A stretch of DNA of 32,000 bases from an uncultured Chloroflexia bacterium (GCA_963704755.1 OY969938.1:1650001-1682000), one strand, 5' to 3'; positions 1,078-25,937 are shown, counted from the stretch's first letter. Numbers and translations are program-made. Notes: a model not told the origin generated them from the letters alone.

Positions 1078-1087
1078 GAGGGCAGCC

Positions 1088-1543: not shown

Positions 1544-1591
1544 CTCTGATTTCCGAACCAGCCTGAGCAGTAACCACCGGATAAAAAAACG

Positions 1592-1638: not shown

Positions 1639-1667
1639 CAGGGAACTCCTGATTAAGAAGAAGGTGC

Positions 1668-2531: not shown

Positions 2532-2532
2532 C

Positions 2533-5539: not shown

Positions 5540-5541
5540 AG

Positions 5542-6585: not shown

Positions 6586-6668
6586 TCGATCAGGAGCATA
6601 TATAAAGGAAGGCGCAGCTACTTGCGCTTATCGACGTTCACAGAGACCGGTAAGAGACCAACAAAGAA

Positions 6669-7844: not shown

Positions 7845-7872
7845 AAGGACCCATCGAAACGCGAATTTTATC

Positions 7873-9042: not shown

Positions 9043-9136
9043 TCGCCGTATCCAATTTTATCGTTATTGACGTTCGTATCCCCCGAAAATGCCCCCTTAA
9101 CCGGAATGAAATCGCCTGTATCGGCAGGAGCGTTTT

Positions 9137-10297
9137 TTGAAGGAAATTCCAAGTAATCTCAGGTGCATAATGGAAATAACGGGTTATATCGGTAAAGTTT
9201 ATGAGCACATTGTCTCTACGAAAAAAAGAATATTTACCCGCTTCGACCACTGGTTCACCGGGTTTTTCATCAAATGGATTACTTCCCTTTCAGGGCACCC
9301 GGGCGCCTGGCAAGAACGGATCCTGCTTCCCAAGTTTCATTTTTTGTATACCACTGAAAAAGATTTCATAAAAATGTATGAATTCCGGGTTTTCCGGCTG
9401 ATAAGCCAGGAGAACCAACCGGATATCCCTCATGAAGTGGTATATATCAGCGCCAAAGCCGACTATGCCAACCTGGGAAGACAGTTCTTCAATAATGCAC
9501 CCTACCGGGCGCAAGAGATCGAAAGAATCCCTCGAAAAAACTTGAATGCCGAAATAGAAAAACTAGCCGAAAACGCTGACTTCCTGGCTGCAACCCGCAG
9601 CGAACACAGCCATTGGGTGCCATCCTACGGCAAGTGGCTGACCTTCCCCTCGGTTTTATACCTCATTCGAGATTTCCAACCGGGGGAAACCTGGGAACAG
9701 ATCGAACGAGATCTAAAGAAGAAGAATTCGAGCAATATCCGTAAAGTCATTAAAGCCGGTTTCCGATTAGAAACCAGCCATTCCAAAGATGATCTCGAAT
9801 TCTTTTTATACCGTATGCACAAACCCTACATGGCCTCACGCCATGGTGAACGGGCCGAAATCGCCTCGCTGGAGAATTTGAACGAAGTTTTTGAAAGCTC
9901 CGAACTGCGCTTTATTATCACCCCGGAGGGCGAGCGGGTAGCCGGGGGCCTGATTTAACGGTCTGCCGATTTGGTACTCTGGCTATTTATTGGCCTGCTG
10001 GATGGCGACAATACCTGGCTGGAAAAAGGAGCCGTTACGGCAATGTATTACCTGGGGATCAAAGATGATTTTGACCGAGGTATCCGCCGGATCAATGCCG
10101 GTTCAGCCGATGTATTCATAGACGACCCGTTATTTTTCCACAAGAAGCGCTACGGGTTTTACCCGACCACCGCGGCCTGGGTTTATACCGAAACCTTACT
10201 TTGGTCACCGCGACCTTACCCGGCTGTGGAACGTTTTTTCGATACCGGCAACTATTTCACCGAATTTATCCGGGCTTCCTCTGAAGGAGTACGATGA
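9137..10297 (+). pseudogene. FemABX / Acetyltransf_6-like paralogue 3 of 3, interrupted by a single in-frame TAA (9956-9958)
   Basis: ORFs 9137-9958 and 9971-10297 are in the same frame. Read through, AGGLI*RSADLVLWLFIGLLDGDNTWLEKG aligns without gaps to paralogue 2 AGYFCYRRGKVSLWIVNGILDGDETWLEQG. The stop sits where paralogue 2 has Tyr. The downstream fragment has only a TTG start and no SD. A possible true start is TTG 9137 or ATG 9170. Confidence 0.6.
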
Positions 10298-10314
10298 CCG
10301 CCAGAAAGCGGCGG

Positions 10315-10343
10315 TTGACAAACGAAAATTTGCCGGATGTATT
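10315..10343 (+). promoter_or_regulatory. Weak sigma70-like promoter candidate (TTGACA-17 nt-TGTATT) in the 240-nt gap before the AsnB-like gene
   Basis: There is an exact TTGACA at 10315-10320, a 17-nt spacer, then TGTATT (4/6 match to TATAAT). The host sigma-factor consensus is unknown, so this is only a pattern match. Confidence 0.15.
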
Positions 10344-10538
10344 TGCCATGACAATGCTGCAAAACCCCGTTTGCGTGTAAAACCCACCATTCAACCTTTG
10401 CACTATTCGTCTTCTCGCTGAAACAAAAATTTTTCCAGGGCATCATCTCATCCACATGAAATGCCAGGATGGACGGATGAAGTACCGGTTTATTGATTTG
10501 TGTTTTAGCCATTGAAACAAGAAAGAGAGGGAAACTCA

Positions 10539-12464
10539 ATGCCAGGGATCTGCGGGATCATCTCAAAAACAGACCGACAAGAAATAATAGATGAAACCAT
10601 TCGGCAAATGGCCCACCCCATGTTGCGTACTCCAACGTCGCAAGGTGACAAAATTTCGGATAACGGCTACGCCATAGCCAGTGTCGCTATCGACGATAGC
10701 CGGCCCGTCTGGAGTGAACAAGATATTACCCTGGCGATCGCAGGCGACTTTACCGACCGGGATGCACTGGTCAACCGCTTACGCGCCGCCGGCAGCCCGG
10801 TTACGGCAAAGGCCCCGCTGAGCGAAATCCTCTTGAAGGCTTATCGTTGTTTTGGCCTGGATGCCCTGTGTGGCTTGAATGGGGTTTACACCATCGCGAT
10901 CTGGGAAAATGTAAGTGAACAGCTCACCCTGGTTACGGATCGCATCGGCATCGGGAAAATGTACTTTTGGCAAAACGGGCGCAAGTTCTATTTTGCCAGC
11001 GAACAAAAATCGATCTGCCTGCTGCCGGAATTTAGCTCCCGCATCAATCAACTGGCCGTGATGGATTTCCTCATTGCCGAGAATGCCCTGGATGACCGCA
11101 CCTACTTCGAAGATATCAAAATCATGGACGCGGCCCAGGTCGTCGTTTTCCGAGATGGGCAGCTTTCCAAGCGGCGTTATTGGGATTTTTCCTTCTACCA
11201 ATCGGGCGATACGGTCCTGCAGCCCGAGGCGTACATCAATGGCCTGGCCTACCTGGTGAGACAGGCCGTCCTCCGGCGGGTCCATTCCAATGCAACCCTG
11301 CTTTTGACCGGCGGTTTGGACTCGCGCAGTGTCGCCGGCGCCTGGAAGGATGTGGCCCCCGATATTCCCATCCTGACCAATACGATCGGCCAACCTGGCT
11401 GCCGGGATGTGTGGCGTGCGCGTGAAATTTCAAAGAACATTGGCCTGAACCACACCACCATCCCTGCCAACAATTCTTACCTGGCCAATTACGCCGCCGA
11501 ATGCGTCTGGCGTACCGAAGGTAACATCAATGTCCACGCATCCTGGATCTTTGCCGAAGATAATTACCTGACGAAAAACAAAATAAAATACGCCATGACG
11601 GGCATCTATGGCGATATGATCGGTGGTCGCTTCCGCCCGCCGGAATTGCTTTCGGCCCGGACGAACGAAGACCTGGAAAAATTCCTGGTCACGCATCCCT
11701 GGATCAACAACTCCTTCGCTCAGCAAATTTTACGCCCAGAAATTTTCCAGCGCTACCAGGGACAAACCTACCAGACCCTGTGGGACTTAACCCAAGAAGC
11801 CAATTCCAAGATCCCCTGGTTCCAATTCGATTACATGGTCTTTCGCGCGTTGGTCCGCCGTGAGGCCACCAGCGTGGACGTCCTCTCGGACAATACCTGG
11901 GTGCTGGACCCGTTCATCGATAAAGACCTGATCGATTACGTTTTCCACCAGCCGCCGGGATACCGCAACGGCCCGGCTCTGTACAAGAAAATGATTACCC
12001 AATATTTCCCCGATGTCGCCTCGGTGGGCTATGGAAACGACGATACTTCGCTGCGCTTTCAGGTGGCCTACCAGAACAACGAACCCCTCAAGTGGCTGGC
12101 GCGCACCGGCCGGCGCATCCGCAACCGGCTTACGCCGGATACCACCTCCCTGCTCAGCGGCGATCGCCCCTATTGGAATGTGCCGTTGAATGGCAGTATC
12201 CGCAACGGCTCGCGCGCTTTCGTCGAGGAGGTATTTGCACAAAGTGAGTATTACGACGACGTCTTTGATGTGAAACAAGTCAGGCAATTGCTCGACGATC
12301 AAATGACCGGCAAAATCAACGATTACCGCGCCATTGGCTACATCCTGACCTTTTCCTTATGGCGGAAAATGTTCTGCGACAGGCAGTACAGCCCGGAAGG
12401 TTATTCCGCTATCCCTGCGGCCGAATTGCAAATGTCGCGGGTTCACGACCCGATCAAACAATAA
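10539..12464 (+). CDS. Asparagine synthetase B-like glutamine amidotransferase/adenylating enzyme (WbpS-like glycan amidotransferase candidate)
   Basis: 641 aa from ATG 10539, with GAGAGGG upstream. It has an N-terminal Ntn-type ICGI motif and a PP-loop in LLLTGGLDSRSVAG. Length and domain order match AsnB-family proteins common in polysaccharide loci. Confidence 0.87.
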   Translation: MPGICGIISKTDRQEIIDETIRQMAHPMLRTPTSQGDKISDNGYAIASVAIDDSRPVWSEQDITLAIAGDFTDRDALVNRLRAAGSPVTAKAPLSEILLKAYRCFGLDALCGLNGVYTIAIWENVSEQLTLVTDRIGIGKMYFWQNGRKFYFASEQKSICLLPEFSSRINQLAVMDFLIAENALDDRTYFEDIKIMDAAQVVVFRDGQLSKRRYWDFSFYQSGDTVLQPEAYINGLAYLVRQAVLRRVHSNATLLLTGGLDSRSVAGAWKDVAPDIPILTNTIGQPGCRDVWRAREISKNIGLNHTTIPANNSYLANYAAECVWRTEGNINVHASWIFAEDNYLTKNKIKYAMTGIYGDMIGGRFRPPELLSARTNEDLEKFLVTHPWINNSFAQQILRPEIFQRYQGQTYQTLWDLTQEANSKIPWFQFDYMVFRALVRREATSVDVLSDNTWVLDPFIDKDLIDYVFHQPPGYRNGPALYKKMITQYFPDVASVGYGNDDTSLRFQVAYQNNEPLKWLARTGRRIRNRLTPDTTSLLSGDRPYWNVPLNGSIRNGSRAFVEEVFAQSEYYDDVFDVKQVRQLLDDQMTGKINDYRAIGYILTFSLWRKMFCDRQYSPEGYSAIPAAELQMSRVHDPIKQ

Positions 12465-12575
12465 ATCATCGACAAAGCCGGGTAACTAGAGCTTGGGCAA
12501 GAAGCTCCCGAAATACCGGGCAATTTCAAAGAAAAGCTGAAATCAAGACCACCAAGTAAAGGAACTATCTGGACC

Positions 12576-13838
12576 ATGGATGAGCAAACTCTAGAATTAA
12601 CCCAGGCCGCCCCCTACCGCATCGAGCCAGTCTGCCGATCTTGCGGATCTGGTCATCTAGTCAAGATTATGTCCTTTGGACAGACCCCCCTGGCCGACCG
12701 TCTGGTGACGCCGGAGCAACTGGATTCACCAGACCTTGTCGCTCCTCTGGATTTGTTTTTCTGCCCCGACTGCTCGCTGGTTCAAATCTCGGCCACCGTT
12801 GAACCAGACGTGCTCTTTGGACAGAATTATCCCTATTTTTCTTCAGTTTCCGCCACCTTGATGCAGCATTCGCGTGAAAACGCGCTCGAACTGATCGAAA
12901 AACGGAACCTGGGACCCAACAGCCTGGTGATCGAACCGGCCAGTAACGACGGCTACATGCTGCGCAATTTCGTCGAAGCCGGTATTCCCGTCCTCGGCAT
13001 CGACCCGGCCAGCGGCCCGGCCAGCGTGGCCCAGGCCTCCGGTGTTCCTACCCTGAACACATTCTTCGGGTTGAAACTTGCCAAAGAACTGGCCCGCCAG
13101 AATACATTCGCCGATGTGATCATTGCCAACAACGTTTTGGCCCATGTCGCCGACCTGAACGGCTTCGTCGAGGGGGTCAAGACCGTCCTCAAGCCAGACG
13201 GGGTTGCCGTCATGGAAATGCCTTACGTGGCCGACCTGATCGGCAAGACCGAGTTCGACACGATTTATCACCAACATCTGTGCTACTTCTCGATCACCGC
13301 CCTCGATCGCTTATTCCGCTCGCACGGCCTGTTCCTCAATGACGTACGCCGTCTCTCAATTCACGGGGGTTCGTTACGGCTATATGTCGAAAAAACCGAT
13401 AACCAGTCCGCGTTTGTGCGGGGCTTGCTGCGGGACGAGAGCCAGGGAGCGGCCTGCCTGGAGTATTACCAGGCATTCGCTGCCCGTGTCGCAAAGATCC
13501 GCGCGGACCTGAATGCCTTACTGAGCGACCTCAAAGGACAAGGCGCCCGGATCGCAGCGTATGGTGCTGCTGCCAAAGCCTGCACTCTTCTGGCCTACTG
13601 CCAGGTGGATGCGCGCTCCATCGATTATGTCGCGGACCTGAATACACATAAACATGGCCTGTTCATGGGCGGGAATCATCTCCCGATTGTTCCTGCAAAT
13701 AAGCTGGCTGCCGACCAACCCGACTATGTTTTACTCCTGGCATGGAATTTTGCAGATGAAATCCTGAAACAACAAAAGGATTATCGCGACCAGGGAGGAA
13801 AATTCATCGTACCCATCCCGCAAGTACGGGTAATCTGA
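12576..13838 (+). CDS. SAM-dependent NDP-sugar C-methyltransferase family protein (TylC3-like; Zn-ribbon + class I MT + C-terminal MT-associated domain)
   Basis: The N-terminal four-Cys pattern is CRSCGSGHL...[11 protein letters not shown]. The SAM motif is of the E-P-A-S-N-D-G type ([12 protein letters not shown]), followed by ANNVLAHV and then YHQHLCYFS. The C-terminal Rossmann-like block is [14 protein letters not shown]...[11 protein letters not shown]. Confidence 0.85.
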
Positions 13839-13839
13839 T

Positions 13840-14958
13840 TTGCAAAAAACAATTTACAAAACTTATCGCTATATCCGCTCAAAGGCTGGCTACGTGAAAC
13901 GACAATTAATCAAACCCAATGACAATGCTGAATGGACTGAAGGCCTTCCCCCAGGTTTTTCACCCCAATTTTTGGAACGGGGTAATCATAAAATAAATGA
14001 AAAACAACTTAAGCGCGCAAAATTCAAGCACCTCTCCGGATGGAAAGAGGCAGGTGCCTATCGCATAGAAATCCCCCTGAGCCGTGGAAATAAATGGCGT
14101 CTGGTTTTCAAAGACGCGAATTACCACACGGACCAGCTTCCGGCGCTTAAGGGATTGCCTTATATTCCCGGGCCACCCGAATATGCATTGTTCCATCACC
14201 CACCCCAAGCGCTTTCCGCATTTCTTCCCCAATGCCTCTGGGCAGAAGAGACCGAGCCCGGCAAACGCTACCGTTACCTTTTCGAAGACCTGACCGGTGA
14301 ATTCGGCCGGATCCGGGGTGACGAGGGTTTGCTCAAAGCCGTCCACATGCTCCTGCCGCTGCAAAACGCCTTGCAGGACTGGCAGCCAGGATCCGACGAT
14401 AACCTGCTGCACTACAGCGGGGCTTCGGTCCGGGCTCTTGAAGAGTATGTATTCCATTCGATCAGCCGCTATTGCGAACAATATCCGGGTGATACCGTAA
14501 CCGACTTTCTCCATCGCTGGCCTGAGATTCTCAAGGTCCACGAGCTGTTCGAGCGAATTCCGGCCTTTGATAGCACTGTCGTCCACGGCGATCTGAATAC
14601 CACCAACATCTACGTTCACAAGGAAGACCCCAGCATATTTCGCCTGGTGGACTGGGAATGGGCCGGTTGGGGGAACCCCCATCTGGACCTGGCCTGTTTA
14701 CTCAAACGGGTCAGCCCTGAATTCGAAGAAAAGGCCTTACAGGTTTATGCCCAAGACCGCCCGGCGACAACCTTGTTCGAACATCAATTCGCCTACCACT
14801 GGCATCAATTGGACCGCGGTCTTCTGGACGCCAGCTATGTTGCCGCTCAAATTCTGGACAATCCATATCGGCCAGATTGGGACATCGTCGGCTTCATGGA
14901 AGATTCGCTTAGCGAAGTTATCCGCCGCACACAAATTCTCCTTTCCCTCTCAGGTTGA
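13840..14958 (+). CDS. Aminoglycoside-phosphotransferase/choline-kinase-fold kinase (APH family)
   Basis: 372 aa with a TTG start 1 nt after the preceding stop. The Brenner motif HGDLNTTN is at about nt 14584, followed by the metal-binding LVDWEWAGWGNPHLDLA. Confidence 0.75.
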   Translation: MQKTIYKTYRYIRSKAGYVKRQLIKPNDNAEWTEGLPPGFSPQFLERGNHKINEKQLKRAKFKHLSGWKEAGAYRIEIPLSRGNKWRLVFKDANYHTDQLPALKGLPYIPGPPEYALFHHPPQALSAFLPQCLWAEETEPGKRYRYLFEDLTGEFGRIRGDEGLLKAVHMLLPLQNALQDWQPGSDDNLLHYSGASVRALEEYVFHSISRYCEQYPGDTVTDFLHRWPEILKVHELFERIPAFDSTVVHGDLNTTNIYVHKEDPSIFRLVDWEWAGWGNPHLDLACLLKRVSPEFEEKALQVYAQDRPATTLFEHQFAYHWHQLDRGLLDASYVAAQILDNPYRPDWDIVGFMEDSLSEVIRRTQILLSLSG

Positions 14959-14964
14959 TTTATA

Positions 14965-16014
14965 TTGTTAGACACCAACGACTTCATCATTTGGAATCTC
15001 ACCCACCAGCAGACCGTTACAATCGGCTCACAGTCTCTTTTCAACATTCTTGGCCGGCTCAAAAATCCACTAATCGTCCTGGAGTTTTATTTCCGGGTCA
15101 ACCAGGGCGAAGAAAAGACCATACTGTTCAACATTAGCGACCGAAATTATGGCCGGCTGGAGCGGACAGGCGACTTTAACATCAATTCGATCGACATAAG
15201 TGAACTCAAAGAGACCAACCAGCTATACCTGCGGGTGGAGTATGAAGACCATTGCGAAGAAACATCCATCATTTTTCATACTCGCCGGGTCGAGATCGAA
15301 CAGCCTCGGTTTACGCTCAATTTGGACGGCATTGGTGAACCGCAGGAAGTTGGCCAGGTGGTGGACGGTTACTGGCAGGTCGATCACAGCTCGAGCGCAA
15401 CGCCCAATATCTATGTCCCCCCGGCCGAAGCCGGGTATGACCGGATTTTCCTCTTCGGCAGCCAGCAGTGGACCAGCGGCTACCAAATCACGGCCCGTCT
15501 GGAAGCAACCGCCTGGGCCCACCGGGTTCACCTGTTGGGGCTGCTGTTCAAATGGCAAGCTCACGACAAAGGCGACGGCAGCTATCTCCCGCTAAACTGG
15601 AATACCGGCCTGGGCATCTTTGATTCCCGCAGCGAGACGTTACGAATTCGCTACGGCGTGAACGTGCGCAAGGAAAATGGCCACAAAGTTGGCGATACCC
15701 TGGTCGGTGAAGCTCCCCTGGATCCCACCAGCGCTTCGTCTTTTTCCAAATCGCGTTTTAACATACTGCGCCGTGAACCCAGGCGGGATTACCTGGAACT
15801 AAAAAGACCATACTGGTTCCACCTGATCGTTCACCCCCAAATCCATTCTCTGGCCGTCTGGGCGGATGATTGCCAGCGCCCGGCTAAACCGCAGGTTGTG
15901 ATCAAGAATCCCACCGAATTGTTATCTTTTGGCTCTGTTGGGGTTATTGCCTATAACTGTGGAATACGGATTTATAACTTCGAAGTCAGCCCATACAACC
16001 CACTTTTGCCGTAG
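14965..16014 (+). CDS. Hypothetical cytoplasmic protein; C-terminal concanavalin-A-like (LamG/DUF1080-like) beta-sandwich suspected
   Basis: 349 aa with a TTG start and no signal peptide or TM segment. The C-terminal 220 aa show a DUF1080-like progression (DGYWQVD ... YQITARLEA ... LLGLLFKW ... WFHLIVHP...LAVWADD ... GSVGVIAYNCGIRIYNFEV). The fold call is by eye only. Confidence 0.4.
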   Translation: MLDTNDFIIWNLTHQQTVTIGSQSLFNILGRLKNPLIVLEFYFRVNQGEEKTILFNISDRNYGRLERTGDFNINSIDISELKETNQLYLRVEYEDHCEETSIIFHTRRVEIEQPRFTLNLDGIGEPQEVGQVVDGYWQVDHSSSATPNIYVPPAEAGYDRIFLFGSQQWTSGYQITARLEATAWAHRVHLLGLLFKWQAHDKGDGSYLPLNWNTGLGIFDSRSETLRIRYGVNVRKENGHKVGDTLVGEAPLDPTSASSFSKSRFNILRREPRRDYLELKRPYWFHLIVHPQIHSLAVWADDCQRPAKPQVVIKNPTELLSFGSVGVIAYNCGIRIYNFEVSPYNPLLP

Positions 16015-16142
16015 ACACCGGAACAAACCTTTTCTACAGCGTTTTATCACTGATCCCAAATTTTTTGCAAGAAACTAGCCTGACCACACTTATTTTTTCA
16101 TCGATCCAGCCAGGCAGGATCCTAAACGAAGGGAAATAACCC

Positions 16143-17384
16143 ATGAAATCGTTCCAACCCAATGCCACCACCGTGACCCGCTATGGAACCCATAACCTGA
16201 TCGACCAGAGCTGCCCGAACTGTGGCGCGTTCAGTATGCGTGGTTTCTACGCCGCCCGTAATGTTCCCATTAACGACGTCCGGGTCGTCCACAGCCGCCA
16301 GGAAGCATTGGATTTTCCGCGGGGCGATATTCACCTGGCTTACTGCTGGAAATGCGGCTTCATTACCAACGTTTCTTTCGACCCGGCTACGGTCACTTAC
16401 TCGCCAGAGTTCGAGGAAACCCAGGGCTATTCGGATACGTTCAACGCCTTCCACCAACGCCTGGCCACCTACCTGATCGACAATTACGACTTGCACGAAA
16501 AGAAAATTCTGGAGATCGGCTGCGGTAAAGGCGAATTTCTGGCGATGTTATGCGAAGCCGGTAACAACAGCGGGATCGGCTTCGACCCGGCCTTCGTCCC
16601 CGAACGCAAGCCGCAGATCAGCCGCGGCCAGGTTGAATATATTGCCGACCTGTACTCCGAAAAATACGCCGACATCGAAGCCGACTTCGTGGTCTGCAAG
16701 ATGACCCTCGAACACATTCCCCAGACGCGCGAATTCGTCAGCACGCTCCGCCGGGCCTTGGGCGACCGCGGTGAGACCGGGGTCTTCTTCCAAATTCCGG
16801 AAGTGTTCCGCATCCTACGCGAGCTGGCTTTCTGGGACATCTATTACGAACATTGCTCATATTTCAGCGCCGGCTCGCTCGCCCGGCTTTTCCGCAAGTG
16901 CGGCTTCGATGTGCTGGACCTGTGGACCGACTACGACGACCAGTACCTGATGATCGAAGCCCGGCCCGGCGTAAGCGGCCCGCTGATCCCGCCCCTGCCC
17001 CAGGAGGACGACCTGCCCCAGCTTTTCCCCCTGGCCGGGTATTTCTCCCAATCGGTCAAGACTTGCTTGCAGACCTGGCAAACCCGCATCAGCGAATACC
17101 ATCGCGACGGCCTGCACGTGGTCCTGTGGGGCGGCGGATCCAAAGCCGTGGCCTTCCTCTCCACCCTGGGCATCGCGGAAGAGATCGAATATGTGGTGGA
17201 TATCAACCCGCACAAACACGGCTCTTTCATCGCCGGCTCCGGGCAAGAGGTGGTCGCTCCGGAATTTATGAAAGAATACCACCCCGATATCGTCATCGTC
17301 ATGAATCCGGTATATGTGGAAGAGATCCGCGCCACTTTAGCCGAGATGGACCTCAGCCCCGTTCTGGTGCCGGTCAATGAGTGA
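16143..17384 (+). CDS. Zn-ribbon SAM-dependent methyltransferase (C-methyltransferase-like architecture), tandem paralogue A
   Basis: 413 aa. Motifs are CPNCG...CWKCGFITN, SAM motif ILEIGCGKGEFL, GFDP, CKMTLEHI, FQIPE, WDIYYEH, and a C-terminal VVLWGGGSKAVAFL...DIVIVMNPVY. Confidence 0.8.
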   Translation: MKSFQPNATTVTRYGTHNLIDQSCPNCGAFSMRGFYAARNVPINDVRVVHSRQEALDFPRGDIHLAYCWKCGFITNVSFDPATVTYSPEFEETQGYSDTFNAFHQRLATYLIDNYDLHEKKILEIGCGKGEFLAMLCEAGNNSGIGFDPAFVPERKPQISRGQVEYIADLYSEKYADIEADFVVCKMTLEHIPQTREFVSTLRRALGDRGETGVFFQIPEVFRILRELAFWDIYYEHCSYFSAGSLARLFRKCGFDVLDLWTDYDDQYLMIEARPGVSGPLIPPLPQEDDLPQLFPLAGYFSQSVKTCLQTWQTRISEYHRDGLHVVLWGGGSKAVAFLSTLGIAEEIEYVVDINPHKHGSFIAGSGQEVVAPEFMKEYHPDIVIVMNPVYVEEIRATLAEMDLSPVLVPVNE

Positions 17385-18606
17385 GCCAGTTCCCTCCCAC
17401 ACCGCTGTGAATCAGTCGCTGCCCGGCAAGTGCCCGGTGTGCAACTCGGCGGACACGCGCATTTTCTTCGAGGTCGGCCAGATGCCGGTTCACTGCAACC
17501 GCTTATGGGAACGTTACGACGACGCGATCGATGCGCCTAAAGGTGACCTGCGCCTGGCTTTTTGCCAGCACTGCGGGCACGTATTCAACACCGCCTTCGA
17601 TCCCGAACTGGTAATGTATTCCGCCGGCTACGAAAATTCCCTGCATTTTTCGCCTCACTTTCAAGCCTACGCCAACAGCATTGCGCACCAGTTGATCGAA
17701 CGCTACGATTTGCACCACAAAGAGATCATCGAGATCGGCAGCGGCCAGGGCGATTTCCTCGCCCTGTTATGCGAGCAAGGCGACAACCACGGCATTGGTT
17801 TCGACCCCAGCTTTACCGGTTCCCCGGCCGGCGCGCCGGGCAGTACCCGGGTCGATACGATCCGCGATTATTACTCAGAAAATTATGCCCATTTCCAGGC
17901 CGATTTGATCTGCTGCCGCCAGACCTTGGAGCACATTTACAACCCGGCCGAATTTCTGGCGACCGTCCGCCGCTCGATCGGCGACCGGACCGGCACGGTG
18001 GTTTTCTTCGAAGTGCCCAACGTGCGCTATACCTTGCACGGGCTTTCGATCTGGGACGTCATTTACGAGCATTATTCTTTCTTCAGCGCGCCCTCCCTGC
18101 GCTACCTGTTCACTTCCAACGGCTTCCAGGTCCTGCACCTGGAGGAGACATTTGGCGGCCAATACCTGACCATCGAAGCCATACCGGTCCCCGACGGCTC
18201 TCCGCTTGCTGGAGACTCCGGCAATGAAGATGGCATCGCGGAACTATCCAGAGATGTGGACCGCTACCGCCAGAATTTCACCGAAAAAGTGGGTTACTGG
18301 CAATCGCAACTGGCCTCGATCCGCATGGCAGGCAAATGCGCTGTGGTCTGGAGCGCCGGCTCCAAGGGGGTTACGTTCCTGAATACCCTCAAAACGCCGG
18401 GAGCGATCCAAAATGTCATCGATATCAATCCGCGAAAACATAATCGTTACATCGCCGGCAGCGGGCATCTGATCATCTCCCCTGATAAATTATCCGCGCT
18501 GCAGCCCGATGTGGTGATCGTGATGAACCCGGTTTATTTGGACGAAATCCGCCAGGATTTGCATGAAAAAGGGCTTTCGCCAGAATTGATGGTCGTCAAT
18601 GAATGA
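17377..18606 (+). CDS. Zn-ribbon SAM-dependent methyltransferase, tandem paralogue B
   Basis: 409 aa. Motifs are CPVCN...CQHCGHVFN, IIEIGSGQGDFL, GFDP, CRQTLEHI, FEVPN, WDVIYEH and AVVWSAGSKGVTFL...DVVIVMNPVY. It has an 8-nt overlap (ATGAGTGA) with paralogue A. Confidence 0.8.
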   Translation: MSEPVPSHTAVNQSLPGKCPVCNSADTRIFFEVGQMPVHCNRLWERYDDAIDAPKGDLRLAFCQHCGHVFNTAFDPELVMYSAGYENSLHFSPHFQAYANSIAHQLIERYDLHHKEIIEIGSGQGDFLALLCEQGDNHGIGFDPSFTGSPAGAPGSTRVDTIRDYYSENYAHFQADLICCRQTLEHIYNPAEFLATVRRSIGDRTGTVVFFEVPNVRYTLHGLSIWDVIYEHYSFFSAPSLRYLFTSNGFQVLHLEETFGGQYLTIEAIPVPDGSPLAGDSGNEDGIAELSRDVDRYRQNFTEKVGYWQSQLASIRMAGKCAVVWSAGSKGVTFLNTLKTPGAIQNVIDINPRKHNRYIAGSGHLIISPDKLSALQPDVVIVMNPVYLDEIRQDLHEKGLSPELMVVNE

Positions 18607-19831
18607 TAAAACAGGGGTGTCCGTTTATCACAAAGTACGCATCAACACCAGCGGCAAGAAACAGTGCCCAATTTGCACCAATGGCAATATCCGCACTTTC
18701 CTGGAAACCGGACCGATACCAATTCATACCCAGTTGCTCTGGCAAAAAAGAGAGGATGCGGTCAGCGCGCCAATGGGCGATTTTTTGCTGGGCTACTGTG
18801 AGAGCTGCGGGCATATCTTCAACACATCCTTCAATTCAGACCTGCTGCATTACAGCCAATGGTTCGAAAATTCGCTCCACCCCGCTTCCCGTTTCCAGTC
18901 CTTTAGCCGTCTCGAGATCGATCACCTGGTCGAAAAATATGGACTGCACGCCAAGGCAGTCCTGCAAATCGGCAAAGGGACGGGTGATTATGCCCTGCTG
19001 CTCTCCGAACTGGCCGAGAACCAGGCCACCATCTTCGAGCCCTGCGACAGCGACGGCTATACGACCCCTTCCGGCCTGGAGTTCGAGACCCAAATCCGTG
19101 GCTGCGCCGGCGAGCCCTTCTCGCGCTACCAACCCGACTTCATCTGCTGCCAGGACGCCCTGGAAGAAGCCCAACGCCCGCGTGAGTTCATCACCAATCT
19201 GCGCCACGCGATCGGTGAGCGTTACACCACGGTCGGCTACTTCCAGGTAGCCGATGGACTGGCGATGCTGCAAGAGGATCCCTTCAAAGTCTTCAATTAC
19301 GAGCATTTCTCGCTGTTCACCCCTTCCTCCCTGGGAACTTTATTCGCATCCAATAGTTTCCAAATCTTGCAGCAGCGCTCCCTACCTGAGGAGAGGATGT
19401 TGATTGTCGAGGTCAGCCCGGTTTTGGAAAGCAGCCGGACGGGGAACATAGATGCCCTCTACGATTTGAACAACGTCGCCAAAGAAGTCAAAGAGATCCA
19501 GAAACGGTTCCTGGAATGGATTGCTACCCTCAAAGAGCGCTTGAGCGACTTGAACAACGCCGGAAAGAAAGTGGCCTTTTGGGGCGCCGGCCCGCGTGGC
19601 ACCACCATTCTGAACGTTTTACACGCTCACGAGACCGTCCAGGTCGTCATCGACCCGGATTTCAACAAGGAAGATCTGCATGTACCGGGCACCGGCCACC
19701 GCATCGTCACCCCCGGCCACCTGGTTTCACTCAAGCCAGACGTTTTGCTGATATCCGATCCGGTCCATGACCAGGAAATCCGCTTCCTCGTCTCGGCCAT
19801 GCAATTATCCCCCGAGTTCATCACCATATAA
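18599..19831 (+). CDS. Zn-ribbon methyltransferase-like protein, tandem paralogue C (divergent at several conserved positions)
   Basis: 410 aa and colinear with A and B (CPICT...CESCGHIFN). Differences from A/B are QIGKGTG instead of EIGxGxG, IFEP for GFDP, ALEEA for TLEHI, FQVAD for F(Q/E)(I/V)P(E/N), and FNYEH for IYEH. It has an 8-nt overlap (ATGAATGA) with paralogue B. Confidence 0.7.
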   Translation: MNDKTGVSVYHKVRINTSGKKQCPICTNGNIRTFLETGPIPIHTQLLWQKREDAVSAPMGDFLLGYCESCGHIFNTSFNSDLLHYSQWFENSLHPASRFQSFSRLEIDHLVEKYGLHAKAVLQIGKGTGDYALLLSELAENQATIFEPCDSDGYTTPSGLEFETQIRGCAGEPFSRYQPDFICCQDALEEAQRPREFITNLRHAIGERYTTVGYFQVADGLAMLQEDPFKVFNYEHFSLFTPSSLGTLFASNSFQILQQRSLPEERMLIVEVSPVLESSRTGNIDALYDLNNVAKEVKEIQKRFLEWIATLKERLSDLNNAGKKVAFWGAGPRGTTILNVLHAHETVQVVIDPDFNKEDLHVPGTGHRIVTPGHLVSLKPDVLLISDPVHDQEIRFLVSAMQLSPEFITI

Positions 19832-19860: not shown

Positions 19861-20943
19861 ATGCGCTTCTATTTTGCCAACGCCACTTTCAGGAAGGCCA
19901 ATTCACGTGGGCGAAACGTCCACATCCATCAATTTATAGCCAGTTCGCTCGAGCTGGGCCACGAAATATGGATGGAACCGGACTGCGAACACCCCGGGAT
20001 CAAGTTGCTGCCCAAAGGCAGACTGCCCCGCCTGGCCGCCTTACGGCGCATGGACAGTATTTACATCCGCCTGCAGGACAGCCCCCCGGACGTCTGCCGC
20101 TATGGGGTGGCCCCCTATCACCAACTGGCCGGATCGCCCCTGGTCGTCTGGGAATTCAACACGGTGCCGGAGTTTTCTCAGATCATGAACCACAGCCAGG
20201 AGCGCCTGCAAAACGACCTGGCCAGGTTCCGGAATTACGGCCGCGGCTGTGACCTGGCCGTGTGCGTCTCCCAAAAACTGGCCGAATATGTTCAGGAACG
20301 CCTGGGTATTCATACCACCCTGGTCGTTCCCAATGGCTCCGACCCCGGGCTGTTCCTGCCCAAGTCCAAATTCACCCCGGCCATCCTGGTGAACCCGCAC
20401 AAACTCAATATCGTCTGGGTCGGCAGCGCCGATCTGGGCTGGCACAATTTCAAACAAATGCTCGCGGCCGGCAGAATTCTCACCGCACGCGGATTGAAAG
20501 AGCGGTTCACCTTCCACATCATCGGCAAAGACCTGCCCGAATCCGAACCCTGGGAAGATAACGTCATCTATCACGGGCCCATCCCCTACGAAGAACTGCC
20601 CGGCTGGCTGGCCGCCATGGACGTGGGGTTAGTGCTCTATCACAGCGGGGTCGCGGACTACAACTCGCCCCTCAAATTTTACGATTACCTGGCCAGTGAG
20701 CTGGCGGTCGTCTCCAGCGAACAGCCCCAGGTACGGGAAGTACTCGAGACGATCCAGGCCGCTGACCTGCTGGTACCCTGTGATGATGCCACCGCCCTGG
20801 CCGACGTCCTCGAGAAATTGGAGCAGGACCGCAGCCGGGTCCGCAACCTGGGCAGCGCCGGCCGCCAGAAAGTGATCGAGCAATACAACTGGCAGCGCGC
20901 CGCTCGCGATACGCACAACCGCATCGCCGAACTGCTCTCCTGA
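19861..20943 (+). CDS. Glycosyltransferase, GT-B fold (GT4-like)
   Basis: 360 aa. The C-terminal half is typical of GT4: NIVWVGSADLGWHNF...FHIIGKD...YHGPIPYEELPGWLAAMDVGL...SPLKFYDYLASELAVVSS...AGRQKVIEQYNWQRAA. Confidence 0.78.
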   Translation: MRFYFANATFRKANSRGRNVHIHQFIASSLELGHEIWMEPDCEHPGIKLLPKGRLPRLAALRRMDSIYIRLQDSPPDVCRYGVAPYHQLAGSPLVVWEFNTVPEFSQIMNHSQERLQNDLARFRNYGRGCDLAVCVSQKLAEYVQERLGIHTTLVVPNGSDPGLFLPKSKFTPAILVNPHKLNIVWVGSADLGWHNFKQMLAAGRILTARGLKERFTFHIIGKDLPESEPWEDNVIYHGPIPYEELPGWLAAMDVGLVLYHSGVADYNSPLKFYDYLASELAVVSSEQPQVREVLETIQAADLLVPCDDATALADVLEKLEQDRSRVRNLGSAGRQKVIEQYNWQRAARDTHNRIAELLS

Positions 20944-21023
20944 TCGGTAAGCCGGTGCCCGGTTTTTGGCGGACTGAAACCGCCCAAAATCCCGCAGCGA
21001 ATCTTTCCCGGTTTCCCCAAAAT

Positions 21024-22061
21024 ATGATGAAAAATATTCAACAGCAATTACCCGAACCACCGGCTGGAAAGTGCGGCTGGCCCTGGAACATCGAGCGTAT
21101 CCCGCTTGCTGCGACCATGCCCGGCAAGCAAGAATGGCCGCGCATCAGCGTGACCGTCCCCAGTTATAACCAGGCTCAATACCTGGAAGAAACCCTGCGC
21201 TCGATCCTTTTGCAGGGCTACCCCAACCTGGAATTATTCGTCATGGACGGCGGATCCAGCGATGGGAGTAAGGCGATCCTGGAAAAATACGACGCCTGGA
21301 TCGATGCCTGGGTCAGCGAAGCCGACCACGGCCAGAGCCAGGCCATCAACAAAGGCTGGCAGCGCTCCACGGGTACCCTGGTGGCCTACCTGAACAGCGA
21401 TGATTTTTACCTGCCGGGCGCACTGGAAAAAGTCGCACTGGCCTGGAACAACGAACGCGGATCCGCCCTGATCGCCGGCGCAGTGGCCTTTGTGGATGCT
21501 ACCTCGCGGCGCAACCGGGTGAATACGCCGCACCTCAACACGTCCAGCCCGTTGGACCTTTCCACTTTAGAAATATCCGAGTGGTACATTCCGCAGCAGT
21601 CCAGCTTTTTTGTCCGCCCGGCCCTGGACCGGGCCGGCTGTTGGCTGCGGGAAGACTTGCATTACGTCATGGACCGCGAATTGATGTATCGCCTGTGCCG
21701 CTTTGGGCAAGTCATCCTGCTGACCGACACGTTGGCTGCCGACCGCAAACATGCTGCCGCCAAACGCCAGAAAGACCGCCTGGTTATGTACCGCGAAGAC
21801 GGCAAGGCAATGCAATACTGCGACTGGGGCGGCCATACCGCCAGGCTGCGCCGCCAACAGGTAGCCCGTGAACGCCTGGCGCAAGGTCACTGGCTGACCG
21901 CCCAGGGCGAAAACATCGGCATCCAAAAACTGGCCAGCATTTTTAAAGCCATCAGCTTGCGGCCGGCTTACCTCAAGCAGGTCGAGCCGCTGAACTCCGT
22001 CTTACGGGTAATCCGCAGCCTGCACAGCAATTCAATCGCATACAAAAAAGAGGTGCATTGA
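21024..22061 (+). CDS. Glycosyltransferase family 2
   Basis: PRISVTVPSYNQAQYLEETLRSILLQGYPNLELFVMDGGSSDGSKAILEKY...SEADHGQSQAINKGW...AYLNSDDFYLPGAL is a classic GT2 (WcaA-like) signature with a DD motif. I chose ATG 21024; GTG 20955 is an alternative start. Confidence 0.85.
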   Translation: MMKNIQQQLPEPPAGKCGWPWNIERIPLAATMPGKQEWPRISVTVPSYNQAQYLEETLRSILLQGYPNLELFVMDGGSSDGSKAILEKYDAWIDAWVSEADHGQSQAINKGWQRSTGTLVAYLNSDDFYLPGALEKVALAWNNERGSALIAGAVAFVDATSRRNRVNTPHLNTSSPLDLSTLEISEWYIPQQSSFFVRPALDRAGCWLREDLHYVMDRELMYRLCRFGQVILLTDTLAADRKHAAAKRQKDRLVMYREDGKAMQYCDWGGHTARLRRQQVARERLAQGHWLTAQGENIGIQKLASIFKAISLRPAYLKQVEPLNSVLRVIRSLHSNSIAYKKEVH

Positions 22062-22810
22062 TGAAATCAGTCGCCGTGATCCCAGCCCGGCTGGGCTCTA
22101 CCCGCCTGCCCCGTAAAATTGTGGCCGAAATCCAGGGCCAACCCTTGCTCTGGCACGTCTGGTCGCGCGTCAAACGCGCCACCGGTTTGGACGAGGTTTA
22201 CGTTGCTACCGATTCAGAAGAAATCCTGGCCGCAGTCGAATCGTGGGGCGGGCAGGCGCGCCTGACCAGCGCCAACTGCCGCTCAGGCACCGAGCGAATC
22301 GCCAGCCTGCTGCCCTCGCTAAACGCAGATTTTATCCTCAACGTCCAGGGTGACGAGCCTCTGATCGACCCGGCCTTGATCGACGCCATGGTAATGCGTT
22401 GGATGGAAGACCAGCCCGAGCTGGTCACGCCGGTATACCGCATCTCTACACCCGAAGAGCTGAACAGCCCCAACGTAGTCAAAGTAGCCCGGGCTGCCGA
22501 TGGGCACGCGCTGTACTTCTCGCGCCAGCCCATTCCTTATGTGCGTGATCTGCCCGCCGATCAATGGATGGGAGCGGCCGAATATTGGGGCCACGTGGGC
22601 GTTTACGGCTACCGCTGGGACATCCTGGGGATGTACCCCCAACTGCCCGAATCGCGGTTAGAGACGGCCGAAAAATTGGAGCAACTGCGTTTTCTGGACG
22701 CCGGTTACACCTTCCAAACCATCGAGACCGATTACCGCCCGGCCGCTGTGGACACTCAGGCGGACCTGGACCTGGTCCGGTCGATATTCGCAGGCGTCAA
22801 GCCGGGATGA
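22061..22810 (+). CDS. kdsB: 3-deoxy-manno-octulosonate cytidylyltransferase (CMP-Kdo synthetase)
   Basis: MKSVAVIPARLGSTRLPRKIVAEIQGQPLLWHVW...VATDSEEI...NVQGDEPLIDP...EKLEQLRFLDAGY are KdsB hallmark blocks. Length is about 249 aa. The start ATG overlaps the previous TGA by 1 nt. Confidence 0.9.
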   Translation: MKSVAVIPARLGSTRLPRKIVAEIQGQPLLWHVWSRVKRATGLDEVYVATDSEEILAAVESWGGQARLTSANCRSGTERIASLLPSLNADFILNVQGDEPLIDPALIDAMVMRWMEDQPELVTPVYRISTPEELNSPNVVKVARAADGHALYFSRQPIPYVRDLPADQWMGAAEYWGHVGVYGYRWDILGMYPQLPESRLETAEKLEQLRFLDAGYTFQTIETDYRPAAVDTQADLDLVRSIFAGVKPG

Positions 22811-23811
22811 TCGAGGAAAACATGGCATTAACTGCTATCCGAGAAGAATGGCTGCGGGTCGCGCTGGAGTCGATGCAGCAAGAAGCCGAGGCAATCCGCC
22901 TGGCCGCTACCCGGATGAACGGCAACCTGACCAGGGCGGTCGAAATCATTATGGACCATCCCGGTAAAGTGGTGGTCAGTGGCATCGGCAAATCGGGGAT
23001 CATGGGCGAGAAAATCACCGCCACCCTGTGCAGCACCGGCACCCCGGCGGTTTTCCTGCATGCCACCGAAGCCTTTCACGGCAACCTGGGCATCTACACC
23101 CCCGGCGATCCCAGCATCCTGATCTCCAAAAGCGGCAGCACCGAAGAAGTCCTGCGCCTGGTGCCTTTGCTGCGCCAGTTCAAGTCACCGCTCATCGCCA
23201 TCGTCGGCAACCTGGATTCGCCCCTGGCGGATCAATGTGATGTGGTGCTGGATGCGCGGGTCAACAGCGAAGCCGACCCGCTGGGGATCGTCCCGACCAC
23301 CTCGACCGTGGTCACCCTGGCGATCGGCGACGCCCTGGCCTCGGCGCTGATGTCAGCCCGCGATTTCACCGAGCTGGATTTCGCCAGGTTTCATCCGGGC
23401 GGCCAACTGGGACGGAACTTGATCCTGCACGTTGCGGATGTGATGCACAGCGGCGAGCAGATCGCCTGGGCCACGACCGACACCCGCCTGCGCGATCTGG
23501 TGATTGCGATGACCAGCAAACCCCTCGGCGCGGCCTGCGTCATCGACGATAACGGCTGCCTGGTCGGCATCGTCACAGACGGCGATGTCCGCCGGGCGTT
23601 ACAAAAGTACGATGACATCCGCCCGCTGACGGCCGGCGACGTGATGACCGCCAATCCCATTGCCGCCACTGCGGATATCACCTTGGGGCAGGCTGCTCAA
23701 ATCATGGAAGACCGCCCCTCGCAGATTTCCGTATTACCCGTAATTCAAGCCGAGAGCCGGGTCTGCCTGGGCCTGGTCCGGCTGCACGATATTTACCGTG
23801 GAGGCCAATAA
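22807..23811 (+). CDS. kdsD: Arabinose-5-phosphate isomerase (SIS domain + tandem CBS domains), KdsD/KpsF family
   Basis: The start at ATG 22807 forms an ATGA overlap with the kdsB stop. The SIS motif is [31 protein letters not shown], followed by ISKSGSTEE. The C-terminal CBS pair includes ...[10 protein letters not shown]...L. Confidence 0.9.
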
Positions 23812-23812
23812 T

Positions 23813-24670
23813 ATGACACATCCCCTCGCCTTTGACATCCGGCCTGGGATCAGCATGGGTGGCGACCGCCCGATCTTTATTTGTGGCCCATGTGTGGTCG
23901 AATCGCTTGAGGTGGTTTCCTACACCGCGGCGACCTTAAAAGGCATTTTCGACCGCCTCGGCATCCCCTTTATCTTCAAATCTTCCTACGATAAAGCCAA
24001 CCGCACTTCCGGGCGCTCGTTTCGCTCGATCGGTTTCGAAAAATCCTTACGCATCCTGGAGCAGGTGCGCGACGAAAACGACCTGGCCGTGCTGACCGAT
24101 GTCCACGAGACCGGCCAGGTGGAGCGCGTTGCCCGCACAGTAGACGTGATGCAAGTGCCGGCATTCCTATGCCGCCAGACCGACCTGATCCAGGCCATCG
24201 CCCGCAGCGGCAAGACGGTCAATATCAAGAAAGGCCAGTTCATGGCCCCCGAGGATATGGATTACGCCGTCCAGAAGGCCGCCGACGCCGGCAACAGCCG
24301 TGTCTTTCTCACCGAACGCGGCAGCTCATTCGGTTACCACAATCTGGTCGTGGATATGCGCTCGCTGGTCATCATGCGCCGCAGCGCCCCGGTGATCTTC
24401 GACCTGACCCACAGTGTCCAGATGCCCGGGGGGATGGGTGGTAAGTCGGGCGGACAGCGCGAGTTCGCCCCCTACCTGGCCCGCGCCGCAGCCGCGGTCG
24501 GTGTAGATGGCTTCTTCATGGAAACCCATCCCGAACCGGCCAAAGCCCTCAGCGATGGGCCCAACATGGTCCCGTTGGAAGAGATGGAGACCCTGGTCCG
24601 CTCACTGGTGGACCTGTGGTCCGCCGCCCGGCCATACTGGGACGTTCAGGAAACCCTCGTCAAGGAATAA
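23813..24670 (+). CDS. kdsA: 3-deoxy-8-phosphooctulonate (Kdo8P) synthase, Cys-containing (metal-dependent class) form
   Basis: ATG 23813 is preceded by GGAGG. Motifs are [49 protein letters not shown] and FDLTHSVQ. The GPC Cys at codon 27 (nt 23891) is where non-metallo enzymes have Asn. Confidence 0.92.
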
Positions 24671-24671
24671 C

Positions 24672-25937
24672 ATGGCAGAAATCGTCGTACTGGGAACCCA
24701 AGGGTTCTTTCATCACGCCCAACCGCTCCAGGAACATTATGGCAGCCGCCTGCTGATCGAAGCCGACTACTCACCCGAGAAAGTGGCTGCCCATCACCCG
24801 GATATCCTGATTACCTTCGAAGCCAGCAACCCCCAACGGGGGTTGTGTACCGCCGAAATGATGCGCCGTGGGGTGGCCACCCTGCTCGTGATGGATGGCA
24901 TCCAGGAATGGCGCAATACCTGGTCGCGCACCCATGGAACGTTAAAACGCCCGCTCAACCAACCGGCACTGGTCCACAAGATCGCCTGTTTGGGCCGAGT
25001 GGATGCCCACCTGTACGAATCCTGGGGAAATGTGGGCAAATGCGAACTGGTCGGTGCGCCTCGGCTGGATGACCTGGTCACCAGCCGGCGCCCCGGCCGT
25101 AGTGAACCAGTCAGCGGCCGGCCAATGCGCTTACTGGTGATGACCGCCCGTACACCGGGCTTCACACCCGAAGAGACCGAGGTCACCCTGCAATCCCTGC
25201 GGGATTTGCAAACCGAGCTCGCCGGCCGGGAAGATATTCAAGTAGTGTGGCGCATTTCGAAGGGCCTGCACCTGAAACTAGGGGTGCAAAACACCTATAA
25301 CTCGGCCACCGGCGAAGAGCTGCACGAACTGCTTCCGCAGATGGATGCCGTGATCACCACGCCCTCCACTACCCAACTGGAAGCCATGCTGTCAGGCATC
25401 CCGGTCGCCTTGCTCAACTACCACCGCGTGCCGGTCTATACCCCGGCTGCCTGGGAAATCAAATACGAAGGCCAGATCCACCCCGTACTGGAGGAACTGA
25501 TCGCTCCCCCGCTGGAACGGATCATCTACCAGGAGTACTGCCTGAATGAATCACTGGCCTGCACCAGCCCGGCCCTGCCCCGCCTGATCGCCCTGATCGA
25601 CGAGATGATCCGCATCAAAAAATCCCACGACAATTCCGGGGACGTGGAATTAACCTTTCCGGACCGCATTCTCAACGCCGCTGAGCCGTTTGTGGCCTGG
25701 CCCAGCCAACCCTTCGACCTGGAAAGACTTTACCCCGATCACCCAGTTTTTGGCCATCGAGACCTGGTTCAGCTTCAATCCGAGCTAGACGCAGCCCTCA
25801 TCACTGTCGAACAACTCAAGAGCCAGGTCAGCACGCTCACGGCTCGGTTACACCGCATCCCCGGTTACACCTTTTTTCGTGACATCGTCCTAAATTTCCA
25901 GAAAAAATTCTTCCTGGGAGGGCATTCACGGGTATGA
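24672..25937 (+). CDS. GT-B-fold transferase-like protein (TagF/KpsS-like by layout) with a C-terminal coiled-coil segment; function unknown
   Basis: I placed the start at ATG 24672, with AAGGAA upstream. The 24507 extension overlaps kdsA. It shows the pattern GAPRLDDL...RLLVMTARTPGF...LHELLPQMDAVITTPSTTQLEAMLSGIPVALL, typical of GT-B C-terminal domains. A heptad-like stretch LVQLQSELDAALITVEQLKSQVSTLTARL lies near the C-terminus. Confidence 0.45.
   Translation: MAEIVVLGTQGFFHHAQPLQEHYGSRLLIEADYSPEKVAAHHPDILITFEASNPQRGLCTAEMMRRGVATLLVMDGIQEWRNTWSRTHGTLKRPLNQPALVHKIACLGRVDAHLYESWGNVGKCELVGAPRLDDLVTSRRPGRSEPVSGRPMRLLVMTARTPGFTPEETEVTLQSLRDLQTELAGREDIQVVWRISKGLHLKLGVQNTYNSATGEELHELLPQMDAVITTPSTTQLEAMLSGIPVALLNYHRVPVYTPAAWEIKYEGQIHPVLEELIAPPLERIIYQEYCLNESLACTSPALPRLIALIDEMIRIKKSHDNSGDVELTFPDRILNAAEPFVAWPSQPFDLERLYPDHPVFGHRDLVQLQSELDAALITVEQLKSQVSTLTARLHRIPGYTFFRDIVLNFQKKFFLGGHSRV

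Follow-up and report, generated by a model that had tools for sequence, protein, structure and literature searches.

When three adjacent genes encode colinear proteins of one family and are joined by near-identical junctions, are they recent copies of one another, and do all of them encode working enzymes? The question is raised by a 32,000 nt stretch of DNA from an uncultured Chloroflexia bacterium (GCA_963704755.1 OY969938.1:1650001-1682000; hereafter the window), a single-strand glycan-assembly locus in which three consecutive methyltransferase-like genes, here termed A, B and C, lie downstream of a fourth family member, D. An original prediction had described three colinear open reading frames (ORFs) of 409–413 aa and their upstream relative, with coordinates and lengths that we confirm (Table 1), and had explained A, B and C by unit-wise tandem duplication. 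We find instead that A, B and C did not arise by a recent triplication. Within the TcaB9/TylC3-type three-domain C-methyltransferase fold, A and B represent two separate subfamilies of ancient origin, whilst C is a rare, B-derived tandem duplicate from an Anaerolineae sub-lineage. The reading that we favour, at a probability of roughly 0.6, is that A, B and D constitute an ancient cytidine diphosphate (CDP)-4-keto-hexose C-methylation module, accompanied in the window by a non-catalytic, B-derived C.

Two ancient lineages and a local duplicate

A profile scan restricted to a single genome for each species recovered at least 596 relatives, and 80 loci were examined, spanning Chloroflexota, Cyanobacteriota, Bacteroidota, Ignavibacteriota, Calditrichota/KSB1, Nitrospirota, Proteobacteria, Desulfobacterota, Verrucomicrobiota, Acidobacteriota, Planctomycetota and Firmicutes. 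By tblastn and ORF classification, each of these species loci holds one A-type and one B-type gene and no C-type gene. The gene order D-A-B was seen in 41 of the 80, and amongst the 56 loci with at least 6 kb of sequence upstream of B, A was present in 48 and D in 41. The companions of the cassette were likewise recurrent, and comprised a cytidylyltransferase (66–77 % identity, 37 loci), an extended short-chain dehydrogenase/reductase (SDR; 61–84 % identity) and, often, a GT2 glycosyltransferase; orthologues of the window's own GT2a (∼40–52 % identity) adjoin the cassette in 26 of 82 loci of other phyla. A, B and D belong, together with these genes, to a widespread conserved module.

The three genes had been expected to be each other's closest relatives, yet A and B are each nearest to orthologues in other phyla. 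The closest relatives of A are A-orthologues (46–63 % identity) and those of B are B-orthologues (43–55 %, in other phyla), compared with 43 % between A and B themselves, 34 % between B and C, 28 % between A and C, and 18–24 % between any of these and D. For B, more than 5000 homologues were found at E ≤ 1e-10, the best non-self matches of which (50–62 % identity) are closer to it than either A (43 %) or C (34 %). A-types are monophyletic in a neighbour-joining tree, and clade-specific hidden Markov models (HMMs) separate the two genes, with A scoring 611 bits on the A-clade model and 468 on the B-clade model, and B scoring 574 bits on its own and 491 on that of A. Furthermore, the representative library contains two natural A-B fusions, P0132 (815 aa) and P0133 (820 aa), with halves in gene order, the N-terminal half scoring best on the A-clade HMM and the C-terminal half on the B-clade HMM; these support the view that A and B act together. 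In the related locus L002, a fourth A/B-family methyltransferase (L002:2115-3275; 386 aa, 443 bits on the B-clade HMM) is found upstream of the module, beside a Flg_new_2-domain protein, indicating that family copy number is variable within that lineage. Our searches of the literature available to us found no characterised A/B-type enzyme and no CDP-sugar pathway with several C-methyltransferases. The fold family is known, but the A/B subfamily, its module and the pseudoenzyme-like C are new variants, uncharacterised as far as these searches could tell.

The distribution of C is very different. C-type genes were found only in close relatives of the window (L084, L002, L003, P0126 and P0127), alongside two more distant, dead-looking forms (P0128 and P0134); amongst 1.84 billion representatives they form three clusters at 50 % identity (P0125, P0128 and P0134-like). 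In all 60 bootstraps, C-types and P0128 formed a single clade lying inside the Anaerolineae B clade, beside the B gene of Thermanaerothrix. In agreement with this placement, C-types score 38–60 bits better with the B-clade HMM than with that of A, and they carry the B state at 5–7 of 10 A/B signature columns. A first neighbour-joining tree built without intermediates had put C outside A+B, an arrangement we rejected as long-branch attraction; once P0125–P0130 were added, C nested within the Anaerolineae B-types and the outside position appeared in 0–4 of 60 bootstraps. We also considered a chimera produced by unequal crossover, with B being C-like at its N-terminus and A-like at its C-terminus. 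Windowed identity between A and B is roughly uniform (40–54 %), whilst that between B and C is 41–48 % in the Zn-ribbon region and 19–35 % in the catalytic and linker parts. Descent of C from B under relaxed active-site constraint explains these values better, and no recombination is needed.

The junctions had been viewed as the preserved mark of a duplication unit. Both 12-mers, GTCAATGAGTGA between A and B and GTCAATGAATGA between B and C, have the ATG of the next gene embedded 8 nt before the end of the stop codon, and the two are identical at 11 of 12 positions. Between B and C, the 8 nt ATGAATGA overlap is kept in all four C-bearing genomes (the window, L084, L002 and L003). The start codon of C can be assigned with confidence, and orthologues share its N-terminus (MN[DE]...YHKVR). 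The Thermanaerothrix B protein, encoded in a locus with no C gene, ends in ...DFLLV and lacks the two-residue [N/H]E extension, from which it appears that the B-C overlap arose together with C. The A-B overlap, however, is found only in the window and is absent even in the closest relative. L084, L002 and L003 have AAC in place of AAT and therefore no ATG at this position; in these genomes A ends AAC-GAA/GAG-stop and B starts 5–30 nt downstream. The ATG in the window was created by a synonymous AAC to AAT change, with an alternative GTG start at 17406, and the spacing of A and B in other phyla ranges from a 4 nt overlap to a gap of ∼70 nt. The 11/12 identity is accounted for by the shared ...NE-stop tail and the constraint of the ATGAxTGA overlap (NAT-GAN-TGA), and is no evidence of a copied junction.

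Taken as a whole, tandem duplication describes the step from B to C, which are joined by a conserved 8 nt overlap, and fails for A and B. The full version of this idea, in which all three genes arose in this manner and remain active as subfunctionalised enzymes making a heavily methylated sugar, can point to colinear genes of similar length and common architecture, to near-identical junctions in this genome and to a duplication of B into C that was truly tandem. We nevertheless consider it very unlikely. A and B orthologues are separately conserved in more than 10 phyla, so that their split is far older than this lineage; there is no A-B overlap in L084, L002 or L003; and the conserved catalytic histidines are missing from C-types.

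Active-site residues and the fate of C

The predicted architecture of a Zn-ribbon, a class I S-adenosylmethionine (SAM) domain and a C-terminal Rossmann-like domain is upheld in all four proteins by Pfam domains and by invariant cysteines. Methyltransf_23 and Methyltransf_14 score above gathering in A, B, C and D, and the Zn-ribbon cysteines C24, C27, C68 and C71 (A numbering) are invariant in the alignment of the four and almost invariant throughout the clades. D, which had been called the more TylC3-like member, is indeed a clear member of the TcaB9/KijD1/MtmC/TylC3 group (phmmer E-values of 2e-83 to MtmC, 2e-80 to TcaB9 and 8e-79 to KijD1; Pfam scores of 70.9 bits for Methyltransf_13, 56.7 for Methyltransf_23 and 181 for Methyltransf_14). 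These enzymes share the four-cysteine Zn ribbon, the class I SAM domain and the C-terminal Rossmann-like domain with the proteins studied here, but A, B and C are remote from them, with phmmer values of ∼1e-14 (for A, at best). Their motif I is GxGxG rather than GxNDG, and the Zn-domain model Methyltransf_13 passes its cut-off solely in D, with 23.9 bits in B, 18.9 bits in C and no match in A. No NCBIfam family matched A, B or C, and a cluster look-up yielded no names. Precomputed tables label homologues as PF22674 'C2185-like_N'; in our own scan this model reached 14 bits against a cut-off of 27 and overlapped the C-terminal Rossmann-like region, so the label was set aside as uninformative, and a literature search on 'C2185' found nothing relevant.

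All proteins were aligned to TcaB9, and Tyr76, His181, Tyr222, Glu224 and His225 were used as reference residues; these are the targets of deposited TcaB9 mutants, and we take them to be catalytic. In A, the equivalents of His181, Tyr222, Glu224 and His225 are invariant amongst 63 A-types, and all five residues are kept family-wide. The equivalent of Tyr76 in A (...YSPEFEET...) is Tyr in 57 of the 63, Phe in the window and L084, and Cys in L002 and L003, a change confined to the lineage that also carries C. Amongst 82 B-types the equivalents of Tyr76, His181, Glu224 and His225 are invariant, whilst Tyr222 is replaced by Ile, leaving four of five. D also retains four (Tyr76, His181, Tyr222 and His225), with Gln in place of Glu224. 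A and B therefore share the His181/Glu224/His225 equivalents with the TcaB9 group, from which B differs by its Ile and C by the loss of catalytic histidines. In C-types, Tyr76 has become Phe, His181 has become Glu, Gln or Leu (once His) and Tyr222 has become Asn, Thr or Ser; the His225 equivalent is His only in the C of the window, and Asn, Arg or Gln in its orthologues. Motif I is similarly eroded. The sequences E-I-G-C/S-G-x-G and G-F-D-P are invariant in A and B; the window's C reads QIGKGTGD, and other C-types read GRGPS, GGDSVN or TSNSGD. At the end of beta-2, the acidic position is retained as Glu. These losses make it doubtful that the locus contains four active copies, as had been proposed.

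C is under purifying selection in spite of its eroded active site. The ratio of non-synonymous to synonymous substitution rates (dN/dS) relative to L084 is 0.065 for C, 0.058 for A and 0.094 for a GT4 gene, so that a rough figure of about 0.07 applies to C. An AF2 model of C (pLDDT 82, pTM 0.80) gave full-length Foldseek matches to MtmC, KijD1 and TcaB9 with template modelling (TM) scores of 0.70–0.75 over ∼410 columns and 15–18 % identity, compared with a TM score of only ∼0.33 for generic methyltransferases. Most likely, C is not a fourth methyltransferase but a non-catalytic partner that would bind, scaffold or regulate B or the A/B pair, and it would be translationally coupled to B through the conserved overlap. 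METTL14 and METTL3 offer a parallel, by analogy only, of a degraded methyltransferase paralogue kept under selection beside an active one.

The same selection and the intact predicted three-domain fold could also be expected of a C that has become a different enzyme, be it an O- or N-methyltransferase that dispenses with the His base or an MtmC-like 4-ketoreductase in which NAD(P)H occupies what was the SAM pocket. MtmC is reported to be a bifunctional methyltransferase/4-ketoreductase. The C of the window has the GxGxG motif, the acidic ribose-binding residue and a YEH motif, and, as the cassette lacks a reductase, a ketoreductase C would supply the missing reduction. We regard this as rather doubtful, since neither C nor a reductase occurs in the cassettes of any other phylum, making C dispensable for the core pathway, and since motif I and the His positions vary freely amongst C-types, which argues against a conserved cofactor-dependent active site. 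A non-catalytic C remains our preferred reading.

The nucleotide sugar and the proposed pathway

A 4-keto-6-deoxy substrate had been assumed for these enzymes, which is now uncertain because the linked SDR does not resemble a 4,6-dehydratase. We had initially labelled it CDP-glucose 4,6-dehydratase, and dropped that label on the strength of its equivalog scores, motif and closest structure. The SDR scores 24 bits on TIGR02622 and 43 bits on TIGR01181, far below the cut-offs of these dehydratase equivalogs; its motif FSSSCSNYG...YGxSK, conserved in 36 of 42 orthologues, supplies the Ser/Tyr/Lys triad of an extended SDR and has no Asp/Glu pair; and its best match in the PDB is 6vo6 (3.5e-32), which we take to be Cj1427, a guanosine diphosphate (GDP)-heptose C4-dehydrogenase of Campylobacter jejuni. 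Cj1427 is a ping-pong C4-dehydrogenase, the tightly bound NADH of which is reoxidised by 2-oxoglutarate, giving L-2-hydroxyglutarate (PMC10680097). In nine loci, mostly cyanobacterial, a gene for L-2-hydroxyglutarate oxidase (LhgO; NF008726, 605 bits vs a cut-off of 299) is found next to A and B or between the two (L020, at 8679-9887, L011, L014, L015, L025, L027, L036, L068 and L081). LhgO is an unusual gene for a glycan locus, and its presence in the cassettes hints indirectly at cycling of 2-oxoglutarate and L-2-hydroxyglutarate by the linked SDR, matching the recycling reported for Cj1427 (PMC10680097). We propose that the SDR is a Cj1427-like, 2-oxoglutarate-recycled dehydrogenase. Both lack the dehydratase residues; Cj1427 acts on GDP-heptose and is followed by epimerases and reductases, whereas here the substrate would be a CDP-hexose and methyltransferases lie downstream.

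From these elements a pathway can be sketched. CDP-glucose would be made by the cytidylyltransferase and oxidised at C4 by the SDR in a Cj1427-like ping-pong reaction with 2-oxoglutarate recycling; the resulting CDP-4-keto-hexose would be C-methylated at C3 by D, through the enolate mechanism of TcaB9; and A and B, which keep the His/Glu/His catalytic set and are probably a physically associated pair, would modify the sugar further with SAM, the likeliest extra site being C5, the free alpha-position. The GT2 would then transfer the product into an ABC-transporter-exported, Kdo-containing glycan. The proposed CDP sugar sets the module apart from the TcaB9/TylC3 family, which uses deoxythymidine diphosphate (dTDP) sugars. 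NovU/CloU-type nucleoside diphosphate (NDP)-4-keto-hexose 5-C-methyltransferases belong to the same fold family and methylate the second alpha-carbon, C5. By analogy with them, C5 methylation is the most plausible role of A or B. In this respect the earlier idea that one nucleotide sugar is methylated several times gains support. The most complete version of the scheme is a CDP-hexose pathway in which the C4-dehydrogenase, D and an obligate A/B pair yield a poly-C-methylated surface-glycan hexose in Chloroflexota, Cyanobacteriota, Bacteroidota, Nitrospirota, Proteobacteria and other phyla, with C as a pseudo-methyltransferase subunit in one Anaerolineae lineage. We put this forward tentatively, as possible rather than probable; its product might be a 3,5-di-C-methyl-hexos-4-ulose in which two quaternary neighbours confer stability.

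If the SDR is after all an atypical CDP-glucose 4,6-dehydratase, the product would be a 3-C-methyl-6-deoxyhexose of the cereose/cillose/vinelose type, to which A and B would add O-methylations. D is a canonical 3-C-methyltransferase, the characterised members of which use 4-keto-6-deoxy substrates, and Pfam GDP_Man_Dehyd matches the SDR at 74.8 bits. Set against this are the lack of a 4,6-dehydratase equivalog, the absence of the Asp/Glu (or Asp/Lys) acid-base pair in 42 orthologues and the linkage to LhgO, which fits a 2-oxoglutarate-recycled dehydrogenase; on balance we find the dehydratase explanation somewhat improbable. In Bacillus cereus, the operon for CDP-3-C-methyl-6-deoxyhexoses (cereose/cillose) encodes a reductase and a genuine 4,6-dehydratase along with just one methyltransferase. 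Like the present locus it is CDP-glucose-based, employs a TcaB9-family C-methyltransferase and feeds a surface glycan; the locus studied here, by contrast, has three proteins of the methyltransferase family (four with C) and lacks a reductase and any recognisable dehydratase.

A further alternative is that A, B and C modify the polymer once it is complete, adding a WbdD-like methyl or methyl-phosphate cap at the non-reducing end to be read by the C-terminal domain of Wzt. As in ABC-transporter-dependent O-antigen systems with WbdD-type terminators, the locus combines Wzm and a Wzt carrying a Wzt_C domain with methyltransferases and a kinase-like gene of the APH family (adjoining D). Moreover, in one Nitrospirae metagenome-assembled genome (L028:4071-6300) wzm and wzt are located between the A-type and B-type genes, which ties the module to ABC-transporter-dependent export in that genome. 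WbdD itself, however, is a kinase-methyltransferase fusion that acts on polymer and has neither a Zn ribbon nor Methyltransf_14. The cassette is mostly linked to CDP-glucose synthesis genes and mostly found without Wzm/Wzt, which occur within ±10 kb in 2 of 80 loci, and A, B and C retain the C-terminal domain. In TcaB9-type enzymes this domain binds nucleotide. Action on the polymer is in our judgement unlikely, although by analogy with these systems a rare methylated terminal residue could act as an export signal.

Several points weigh against the favoured reading of an A/B/D module with a non-catalytic C. The methylated positions, and even the choice between C- and O-methylation, are deduced from retained TcaB9-like residues alone, and what supports an NDP-4-keto sugar as the substrate is the genomic linkage to CDP-glucose synthesis and to the SDR. 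After methylation at C3 and C5 there is no alpha-proton left beside the 4-keto group, and three active C-methyltransferases are therefore hard to fit without extra chemistry; nor does the conserved cassette contain a 4-ketoreductase. The match of the SDR to 6vo6 is moderate (115 bits), the identity of that entry as Cj1427 is our presumption, and LhgO occurs in just 9 of 80 loci and is absent from the window. The C of the window keeps the His225 equivalent and the GxGxG motif, and might retain some activity. The trees are neighbour-joining only, with C placed outside A+B when the intermediate P0128 is left out, and dS values of ∼1–1.9 are near saturation, so that the dN/dS values are rough.

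Locus context and significance

The features of the window are collected in Table 1. Amongst named organisms, Thermanaerothrix solaris (Anaerolineae; L004) is the nearest in which the locus is syntenic, and on this basis the source of the window is probably a member of the Anaerolineae. An Rfam scan of the window gave no match.

Table 1. Coordinates and assignments of genes and junctions in the window
Feature	Position	Strand	Remarks
Wzm	1668-2531		
Wzt	2533-3864		With Wzt_C domain
GT2a (GT2)	3861-4769	+	Likely transferase of the modified sugar; Pfam Glycos_transf_2, 98.5 bits
Glucose-1-phosphate cytidylyltransferase	4766-5539	+	CDP-glucose synthesis; NCBIfam TIGR02623, 355 bits vs cut-off 300 (equivalog)
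Extended SDR	5542-6585	+	Proposed CDP-hexose C4-dehydrogenase (Cj1427-like); start ATG 5527 or 5542
Two tandem FemAB/GNAT-like genes	6669-7844, 7873-9042		Acetyltransf_6; between SDR and D
AsnB-like amidotransferase	10512-12464		Asparagine-synthase-like; between SDR and D
D	12576-13838	+	420 aa; canonical Zn-ribbon NDP-hexose 3-C-methyltransferase
APH-family kinase-like gene	13840-14958	+	Between D and A; Pfam APH, 43 bits
349-aa protein	14965-16014	+	Between D and A; no Pfam or NCBIfam match
A	16143-17384	+	413 aa; A-type member of a diverged C-methyltransferase subfamily, ancient lineage
A/B junction GTCAATGAGTGA	17373-17384	+	8 nt overlap if B starts at ATG 17377
B	17377-18606	+	409 aa; B-type member, ancient lineage, partner of A
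B/C junction GTCAATGAATGA	18595-18606	+	ATGAATGA overlap, 8 nt
C	18599-19831	+	410 aa; B-derived lineage-specific paralogue with degraded catalytic residues, putative pseudo-methyltransferase

Between the SDR and D, the FemAB-like pair and the amidotransferase might indicate that the glycan is decorated with amino acids or amides, and genes akin to this set are also found upstream of the cassette in L004. The APH-like gene lies outside the conserved cassette and is present in L003 and L067 only. The 349-aa protein has weak, larger relatives near cassettes in other Chloroflexota and in cyanobacteria (L067:4620-6092 and L027:16031-17173). In L001 (Logan assembly ERR11571143), which is 99–100 % identical to the window, D was called at 5199-6275 as 358 aa compared with 420; this suggests a frameshift or premature stop, which could reflect strain variation or an assembly error.

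Downstream of C the gene order is GT4, GT2, KdsB, KpsF-like, KdsA, more GT4s, a polysaccharide deacetylase and a Wzy_C/O-antigen-ligase-like gene. At 22058-25937, the KdsB, KpsF-like and KdsA genes are followed by an unannotated 476-aa ORF, which is kept in L002, L003 and L004. This ORF matches only DUF6716, 'putative glycosyltransferase', and that weakly (E 0.019); it could be the Kdo transferase. For the ORF at 22564-23811 the called start is clearly too early, as orthologues are 329 aa. GC content steps from ∼0.47–0.58 in the methyl-sugar part (1-19000), with its minimum of 0.47 at 9001-10000, to ∼0.59–0.63 in the Kdo/GT4 part (20000-30000), a pattern that may indicate a mosaic origin of the locus.

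For annotation, this locus illustrates that genes which look alike and lie in tandem are not always recent duplicates, and that neighbours labelled 'epimerase/dehydratase' cannot simply be read as 4,6-dehydratases. Should the module operate as we propose, it would represent a new, phylogenetically broad route to branched, multiply methylated sugars, in which oxidation at C4 without 6-deoxygenation is followed by several C-methylations, and it would provide a function for thousands of proteins annotated only as 'SAM-dependent methyltransferase'. C would be a clean bacterial case of a pseudo-methyltransferase kept beside its active parent, and an as yet unknown monosaccharide would be predicted in the glycans of cyanobacteria and Chloroflexota.

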